Positions 37,222-37,596 are shown, numbered from the stretch's first letter. The stretch is 64,000 bases of DNA from an uncultured Methanobrevibacter sp. (GCF_902770715.1 NZ_CACXTS010000018.1:2666-66665); one strand, 5' to 3'. The notes: generated from the sequence alone by a model not told the origin. Translations and numbers: made by a program.

Positions 37222-37596
37222 TTAATTTACTTCAGAACCTAAACAAGATTGACAATCCTCACCAAGGTCAGATTTGTCAATATTAAGTTGTTTCAAAACG
37301 TCGGATATCTCAACATGATGGCAAATATTGCAGGTTCTTGGAATTAATTGCGCTTTTGTGGCTTCGCCAACAGATAACTCACGAGCAAATTCATGAATCA
37401 TTCCACGAACATCATCGTTAAGTTTAATTCCACTACCACGTTTGTCAGTAATGTACTGTGATACAGCAGGTTGAGTTATATCCATAAGTTCAGAAACATC
37501 TTTTTGTTTCATTCCTAAGTTCAAAAGCTCTTTAGCTAATTCTGACCTAATAGCCGGTATAACATACCAAACTACAATTTCGCAAGGTGGTTTCAT
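37222..37596 (-). CDS. HTH transcriptional regulator (COG2522-like) with Cys-rich C-terminus
   Basis: PPCE...PAIRSELA...MKQKDVSELMDITQPAVSQY HTH; CNICHH and CQSC. Confidence 0.82.
   Translation of the reverse strand: MKPPCEIVVWYVIPAIRSELAKELLNLGMKQKDVSELMDITQPAVSQYITDKRGSGIKLNDDVRGMIHEFARELSVGEATKAQLIPRTCNICHHVEISDVLKQLNIDKSDLGEDCQSCLGSEVN

Follow-up and report, generated by a model that had tools for sequence, protein, structure and literature searches.

How methanogens control their supply of cysteine is the question raised by a compact minus-strand locus in the genome (34% G+C) of a Methanobrevibacter, in which a gene for a small, Cys-rich helix-turn-helix (HTH) protein lies inside a cysteine operon whose promoter carries a pair of palindromes: does this protein read the palindromes, and what might it sense? 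Few cells known are as rich in Fe-S proteins or as dependent on sulfide as the archaea concerned, and in the literature searched, which covers part of the journals, we found no transcriptional regulator of cysteine synthesis or Fe-S assembly described for methanogens or for most archaea. The window, by which we mean the whole 64,000-nt stretch of DNA that was analysed, holds a cysteine island that reads, in order of transcription, aroA, nth, a promoter gap, cysK, cysE, the regulator gene, tRNA-Cys(GCA), and cysS; past cysS come a hairpin and T run, a second promoter gap, and then, also on the minus strand, the genes for O-acetylhomoserine sulfhydrylase (OAHS), nifS, and nifU.

38374..39321, minus strand: cysK (O-acetylserine sulfhydrylase), first gene of the operon (TIGR01139, 443 bits)
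37608..38312, minus strand: cysE (serine O-acetyltransferase), second gene of the operon (TIGR01172, 241 bits; gene order conserved)
37222..37596, minus strand: regulator gene, 124 aa (open reading frame and translation)
37079..37149, minus strand: tRNA-Cys (GCA), 72 nt downstream of the regulator gene (ARAGORN; Rfam RF00005, 53 bits)
35700..37061, minus strand: cysS, cysteinyl-tRNA synthetase (PF01406, 398 bits)
35685-35700: terminator-like hairpin and T run after cysS (hairpin scan)
34288..35487, minus strand: OAHS gene, a likely regulon member (PF01053, 279 bits)
33015-34223, minus strand: nifS, downstream of OAHS
32641-33021, minus strand: nifU, downstream of OAHS

Because the regulator gene is followed at once by tRNA-Cys and cysS, the genes for making cysteine, the regulator, the Cys tRNA, and its synthetase form one block. 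The 72-nt gap before tRNA-Cys is free of the palindrome and has a TATTTAAA-like element of its own. In an Rfam scan, tRNA-Cys was the only match and no riboswitch was found in the leaders; a scan for bacterial sigma-70 promoters gave chance-level results and was set aside, as that model does not apply to an archaeon. The 5′ end of the OAHS gene (window 35480-35500) is ∼125 bp shorter than in the related species G050 and G070, where the additional stretch encompasses the ribosome-binding site, the start codon ATG, and ∼34 codons of the 5′ end. Immediately before the truncated end is an in-frame TGA, and translation could begin no earlier than at a GTG at 35127. The OAHS gene is here either a fresh pseudogene or the product of an assembly error.

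The regulator reading frame starts with an ATG at 37596, separated from the cysE stop (37608) by an 11-nt spacer, AGTGATGAAAA, that includes the Shine-Dalgarno-like word GTGA. The encoded protein (MKPPCEIVV...QKDVSELMDITQPAVSQY...RTCNICHH...EDCQSCLGSEVN) has five Cys residues, at positions 5, 89, 92, 115, and 118, and His residues at 68, 93, and 94. It consists of an N-terminal PPCE, a long helix (residues 5-26), an XRE-type HTH, and a helical C-terminal domain with C89-x2-C92 and C115-x2-C118, and its translation confirmed the description in the initial annotation of a gene 11 nt past cysE encoding PPCE, an HTH, CNIC, and CQSC, with five Cys in all. Residues 21-53 match HTH_3 (PF01381) at 23.8 bits (E = 4.6e-5), barely above the Pfam cut-off of 23, and some relatives score higher than the window protein (e.g., P0207, 33.6 bits). 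A search of the PDB with the family profile matched lambda-repressor-like and other XRE chains (28tn_A, E = 7.8e-7); otherwise PDB sequence and profile searches with the regulator matched the generic HTH region alone, apart from a cytochrome c3 match that we dismissed as chance. The AlphaFold2 model (pLDDT 89.1, pTM 0.83) is all-helical, with helices predicted at 5-26, 31-38, 42-49, 61-75, 81-92, 97-103, and 113-119, of which 31-38 and 42-49 would form the HTH. A Foldseek search of this model against the PDB returned nothing better than E = 1.0, consisting of weak partial XRE matches with a TM score below 0.35 over the whole chain, and NCBIfam gave no family match for the protein.

Its predicted membership in the XRE/HTH_3 class is thus that of the DNA-binding module only. 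The regulator shares with the Cro/C1 proteins this type of module and short palindromic operators in promoters, but differs from them by an extra long N-terminal helix that begins with a conserved P-C-E and by a C-terminal Cys/His domain of ∼65 residues. Because this domain has no Pfam family and no structural relative among the matches, it may represent a sensor fold not described before, one that binds a metal or a cluster. The initial annotation had extended its C-terminal motif to CNICHH, and here it does not hold: the corresponding residues are CKICNN, CKICKN, CSICKH, or CFICKQ in other members of the genus, and because both His vary even within the genus we did not count them in the motif and ruled out a Cys2His2-like element. 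Its remark that the ThiN ligand domain is missing was correct. ThiR, the archaeal thiamine regulator, combines an HTH with a ThiN domain (PF10120), for which Pfam gave no match in the protein or anywhere in its own genome but did so in 5 control genomes; because ThiN is absent, the regulator is not ThiR, although by the initial annotation the N-terminal HTH of ThiR may be of this type (COG2522-like), and its presumed operator and regulon concern sulfur and cysteine rather than thiamine.

The palindrome ATAAC-N4-GTTAT occurs 5 times in the window, as against 0.12 copies expected, with two copies upstream of cysK and three upstream of OAHS. The two half-site centres of the 14-bp palindrome are 9 bp apart, about one helical turn. 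The sites and the promoter elements beside them are as follows.

39432..39448, minus strand: BRE/TATA-like element of the cysK promoter, ACCAAAACATTTATAAA (by sequence consensus only)
39388..39416: two operators in tandem in the cysK promoter, ATAACACATGTTAT + ATAACTATTGTTAT, their starts 15 nt apart (motif search)
38348..38361: near-site ATAACATATGGTAT between cysK and cysE, with one mismatch
35588..35621: two operators, ATAACTTATGTTAT + ATAACATATGTTAT, forming the upstream pair before OAHS-nifS-nifU
35541..35557, minus strand: BRE/TATA-like element of the OAHS promoter, ACCAAAACATTTATATA
35521-35534: operator ATAACAATAGTTAT, 6 nt downstream of the OAHS TATA box, minus strand
35498-35511: near-site ATATCACGTGTTAT, one mismatch, in the OAHS promoter

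Read on the minus strand, the cysK tandem begins 15 nt downstream of the TATA box, and a 15-nt BRE/TATA-like word, ACCAAAACATTTATA, is common to the cysK and OAHS promoters. In the latter, the block 35498..35534 is nearly invariant in three species, and the upstream pair is conserved in both G050 and G070, where it is preceded by a second TATA box. The near-site in the cysK-cysE spacer may be an internal operator; sites within the operon were found in other genera as well (L054, L056).

Genome-wide copy number alone was discarded as evidence, since the genome contains 14 copies of the palindrome and 16 of the reversed control pattern. The signal lies in tandem pairing and in placement, all 14 copies being intergenic compared with 38 of 175 copies of 19 other palindromes of equal composition. 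Five of the 14 belong to the two promoters of the window; the other nine, likewise all intergenic, are at C1:32406, C2:71169, C2:72885, C10:54280, C11:6897, C22:12051, C28:12536, C33:867, and C36:9878 of the same genome (G000). Three of these nine lie in gaps without an evident gene, and downstream of the others are genes for MoaE, a class-II amidotransferase with a glutamate-cysteine-ligase-like (GshA-like) ORF, a PP-loop ATPase with a ThiF-family protein, PdxS/PdxT, a NifB-like radical-SAM protein, and an MFS transporter, which we regard as candidate members of the regulon. At C22 (12030-12085) we also observed a ∼35-nt copy of the OAHS promoter and operator (ATAACAATAGTTATTTTTTATATATAAATGTTTTG), with no evident ORF downstream of it on the minus strand, which may drive a small ORF or a non-coding RNA; the same place bears a tandem site in another genome (G124, L078).

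The regulator gene is present in 173 of 201 sampled Methanobacteriales genomes, representing 23 of 28 genera. The order cysK-cysE-regulator, kept in at least 12 genera of Methanobacteriaceae, is the rule among 20 loci from 14 genera, and at these loci a tandem palindrome pair stands directly upstream of cysK, again with the same arrangement in at least 12 genera. When the cysK upstream regions were aligned by eye, the leaders were seen to consist of a TATA-like 'aaactttataa', 10-19 nt, the tandem (typically ATAACAATTGTTATATAACAATGGTTAT), ∼40 nt, and GGTGA-ATG; in the window and at 15 other loci the operator lies 10-19 nt past the TATA-like element and ∼40-70 nt before the ATG. An exact tandem, defined as two palindromes 0-8 nt apart, was found in 95 of the 173 genomes with the regulator gene (55%) and in 1 of the 28 without it (Fisher p = 6.6e-8, with shared ancestry ignored), and a reversed control tandem in 1 of 201 genomes. 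Within a single genus (g4) the corresponding figures were 9 of 14 and 0 of 6 (p = 0.014, shared ancestry again ignored). The initial annotation had named persistence of the motif in genomes lacking the gene as grounds for abandoning its proposal; 27 of the 28 such genomes have no tandem, and the lone exception (G165), in which no regulator gene was detected, is a fragmented assembly that is 93% complete. Because cysK and nifS, too, are absent where the regulator is absent, so that the whole module is lost together, co-occurrence alone does not single out the regulator, and the motif may be missing there because the target promoters themselves are missing. Lineages that have cysK or nifS but no regulator hardly occur in the order as sampled, and a genome with cysK that appeared to have neither regulator nor motif (G121) was rejected as a counterexample, its cysK lying after nifU at a contig end in a fragmented assembly.

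Genomes in which the gene and its presumed target are separated bear on whether the factor acts from a distance. In G038 a stretch of 72 kb separates the regulator gene from cysK, and the tandem site is nonetheless upstream of cysK; in G065 the regulator is kept, cysK is absent, and the gap between a PNPOx-like gene and nifS holds a site. Both cases would count for a factor acting in trans. G079 goes against a simple gene-site picture, as the regulator has moved beside nth and the cysK-cysE-cysS genes have no site even with one mismatch allowed. The cysK leader there (L065/L061, same genus) contains a direct repeat, TTTTTTTATGGTGG(A/T)GATG...GTAAATCA.

Tandem operators also occur directly upstream of nifS in other genera (L072, L076, L081, L089). 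Secondary tandems precede nifS-nifU and OAHS in g5 and g14, a Cys/Met-family PLP enzyme gene upstream of ThiF and ThiI in g4, and a nitrogenase-like NifD/K pair with NifX-like genes in g3; in other genera they are also found before a PNPOx-like flavoprotein and several small unknown ORFs. Taken together, the sites would describe a regulon that spans the synthesis of cysteine and homocysteine, the mobilisation and transfer of sulfur, and Fe-S assembly. At the g3 locus (L075 of G005, 4000-7100) we counted seven palindromes around the NifD/NifK-like pair, two NifX-like genes, and a PNPOx-like gene, and this nitrogenase-like system may be under sulfur control.

The protein family reaches well beyond the order. 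An exhaustive HMMER search identified 1176 cluster representatives at E ≤ 1e-3, most of them 110-135 aa long and aligning end to end, from lineages including Woesearchaeota, Undinarchaeales, Hydrothermarchaeales, Methanocellales, Altiarchaeales, Halobacteriota, and the Asgard Frey- and Jordarchaeales. The source records name them no more precisely than 'transcriptional regulator', 'helix-turn-helix domain-containing protein', or 'hypothetical', and the full-text literature searched, from part of the journals, contained no description of the family or of an archaeal regulator of cysK or nifS. The family pattern over ∼120 aa is M-x2-P-C-E ... HTH with A-V-S-Q-Y ... K-R-G ... C-x2-C ... C-x2-H ... 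C-x2-C, of which the window protein carries every element but the C-x2-H pair, a loss specific to its genus. We sampled nine distant family genes on long contigs, with 35-45% identity and from six or more archaeal lineages, and their surroundings were as follows.

Two of nine loci: an operon of APS-reductase-like, ATP sulfurylase, two sulfite-reductase-like, and FrhB genes
One of nine: regulator heading nifS-nifU-thiI
One of nine: regulator between sufBD and nifS-fdhD-nadA
One of nine: regulator divergent from cysK-cysE and heading two nifS genes
Two of nine: regulator heading a hexapeptide (CysE-like) gene
One of nine: regulator heading CODH/ACS
One of nine: neighbours without clear assignment

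Sulfur or Fe-S neighbours are thus present at 7-8 of the nine. At four of them TAAC-N4-GTTA lies at most 55 nt upstream of the regulator's own start codon, compared with ∼0.07 expected (Poisson 9e-7); in the Methanocellales locus two sites flank the TATA box, and on a Halobacteriota contig ATAACGATTGTTAT abuts the regulator ATG. Across the family, A44, S46, Q47, and Y48 of the recognition helix show almost no variation, which fits an operator that has hardly changed. Five metagenomic proteins of 214-226 aa (P0139, P0271-P0274) have two copies of the HTH module fused in one chain, an arrangement that fits a two-module DNA-binding unit.

Could the palindrome be bound by a different regulator while this protein serves another target? 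We consider this very unlikely. The weakness of co-occurrence as an argument, given that the gene-less genomes are also without the target genes, and the genome with the regulator gene but no site at cysK (G079) are both in its favor, but the palindrome is directly upstream of the family gene in four distant phyla with differing neighbours, in at least 12 genera the regulated operon itself contains the regulator gene, and no other regulator gene recurs at the regulator loci and secondary tandem loci examined. The motif travels with the gene though its neighbours differ, which is the strongest argument that the regulator, and not another protein, is the binder. From these comparisons the regulator very probably binds ATAAC-N4-GTTAT, and the part of the initial proposal that made it the factor acting at the operator gains strong support from gene order, promoter position, co-occurrence, and the travelling of the motif with the family. 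As to the sign of its action, in archaea a site that covers the transcription start downstream of the TATA box is the classic position of a repressor, and a factor bound to a tandem between the TATA-like element and the ATG would cover the transcription start. The OAHS site pair, ∼50 nt upstream of the TATA box, occupies a position used by archaeal activators, and IscR is itself a dual regulator, so the protein could instead be an activator or dual regulator that raises expression under a shortage of sulfur or Fe-S clusters; this seems rather unlikely to us, as the cysK sites are downstream of the TATA box in all genera examined and would cover the start site, and in G050 and G070 a second TATA box precedes the OAHS upstream pair. 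We thus favor the regulator as a repressor, which on the placement of its sites is the likely sign.

What the Cys residues do is less readily decided, and it is here that conservation is informative. In the Methanobacteriaceae genera other than that of the window, the protein has C5, C89-x2-C92, C102-x2-H105 (CQLH), and C115-x2-C118, whereas Methanobrevibacter has K, E, or N in place of C102 and N or G in place of H105, a genus-specific loss that weakens any model of a single fixed metal site. Among 193 family representatives below 60% identity, all seven positions (C5, C89, C92, C102, H105, C115, and C118) are present in 72; another 47 are without C5 and C89 together, about half of these also without C92, and keep C102, H105, C115, and C118; C115 and C118 are nearly invariant. 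The positions thus fall into at least two covarying groups, {C5, C89, (C92)} and {C102, H105}, around a constant C115/C118, and the set looks like one or more metal or cluster sites, two or shared, that would tie the N-terminus to the C-terminal helices. It is possible, if somewhat unlikely, that the protein is an operator-binding repressor whose Cys/His set is a structural zinc site only, the signal coming by way of O-acetylserine, cysteine, sulfide, or a partner protein (CysK, as for CymR). Structural zinc sites typically show the spacing C-x2-C ... C-x2-H ... C-x2-C, the branch without C5 and C89 retains a Cys3His subset (C102, H105, C115, and C118), and the regulator gene adjoins cysK and cysE. 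For one purely structural site, however, it is odd that Methanobrevibacter should lack C102 and H105 yet keep C115 and C118 in more than 100 sequences; moreover, C5 and C89 are gained and lost together, suggesting a second site that joins the N-terminus to the C-terminal domain, and the C-terminal tail is variable and so provides no conserved tail on which CysK could dock. That the Cys set binds a metal or a cluster appears likely on this covariation, while a sensory Fe-S cluster as the cofactor is a tentative assignment that we would not yet favor. The other part of the initial proposal, sensing of Zn, Fe-S, or persulfide through the Cys cluster, is plausible but speculative.

The reading that we consider probable, as a whole, is of an autoregulated repressor of a cysteine, sulfur-transfer, and Fe-S regulon that binds ATAAC-N4-GTTAT and whose Cys/His set carries a cofactor that sets its affinity. 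A dimer of the regulator would sit on each 14-bp palindrome by means of its XRE-type HTH, and tandem or multiple sites would place it between the TATA box and the transcription start of the cysK and OAHS promoters; because the sites lie between these two elements, the bound protein would block recruitment of RNA polymerase and thereby repress. As the regulator gene is the third in the cysK operon, the protein would also limit its own synthesis in a negative feedback loop. The helical C-terminal domain and Cys5 are predicted to hold the conserved Cys/His set, which most likely carries a metal or an Fe-S cluster, and, more speculatively, DNA affinity would follow the occupancy or state of the cofactor at the Cys residues, be it an Fe-S cluster that NifU supplies, Zn, or the thiol/persulfide state. 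A much broader proposal, which we put forward as a doubtful one, is that of a near pan-archaeal family of master regulators of sulfur assimilation, cysteine synthesis, and Fe-S biogenesis, whose members use a Cys-ligated Fe-S cluster, placed between the N-terminus and the new helical C-terminal domain, to read the Fe-S or sulfur status of the cell and share a single, nearly constant operator, (A/T)TAAC-N4-GTTA(T/A), from methanogens to Asgard archaea and DPANN. If this were true, archaea would have in this family the counterpart of IscR, SufR, and CymR that has so far been missing.

By analogy, the regulator would work like IscR and CymR while standing outside their Rrf2 family. IscR, the small [2Fe-2S] repressor of the Rrf2 family in Escherichia coli and other bacteria, is autoregulated, its gene lying within the operon that it controls. 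The likeness extends from this position of the gene to the targets (iscS/iscU there, nifS/nifU here), the Cys3His-type ligand set of IscR, and palindromic operators that overlap promoters. In contrast to the Rrf2 winged helix of IscR, the regulator has an XRE-type HTH and a helical Cys domain, its regulon also takes in cysteine and homocysteine synthesis, and its cluster is putative. Pfam and NCBIfam searches gave no match of the regulator to Rrf2 (PF02082), and there was no Rrf2 structure among the PDB sequence and fold matches. CymR, the Rrf2-family master repressor of cysteine metabolism genes in Bacillus subtilis and Staphylococcus aureus, is similar in the genes that it controls and in its link to CysK; it differs in having no sensory cofactor and in requiring a complex with CysK, for which the regulator has no conserved docking tail, and it belongs to another protein family and another domain of life. 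SurR of the Thermococcales is likewise archaeal, responds to sulfur status through a CxxC, and recognizes a palindrome-like promoter site, but SurR, at ∼230 aa, has two winged-helix domains and an N-terminal CxxC disulfide switch for elemental sulfur, and it controls hydrogenase and sulfur-reduction genes. The regulator has 124 aa, a single XRE-type HTH, and C-terminal CxxC motifs, and no sequence or fold relation to SurR appeared among the PDB sequence and fold matches.

Here the sequence names a candidate regulator, operator, promoter logic, and regulon, the protein being 124 aa long and the site 14 bp, and because the family reaches into Asgard, DPANN, and methanogen lineages, one result could annotate hundreds of genomes. 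For the Methanobrevibacter of the gut and rumen, how the supply of cysteine and Fe-S is controlled matters to growth and methane output.

The number and location of regulator genes vary among the sampled genomes. Two or three regulator matches per genome were seen in G005, G040, G073, G136, G143, G174, and G192. Partial or second copies lie beside the full one in G005 (L049, 8284-8523) and in genus g9 (L079/L080), and at another locus (L057) one regulator copy lies away from any cys gene.
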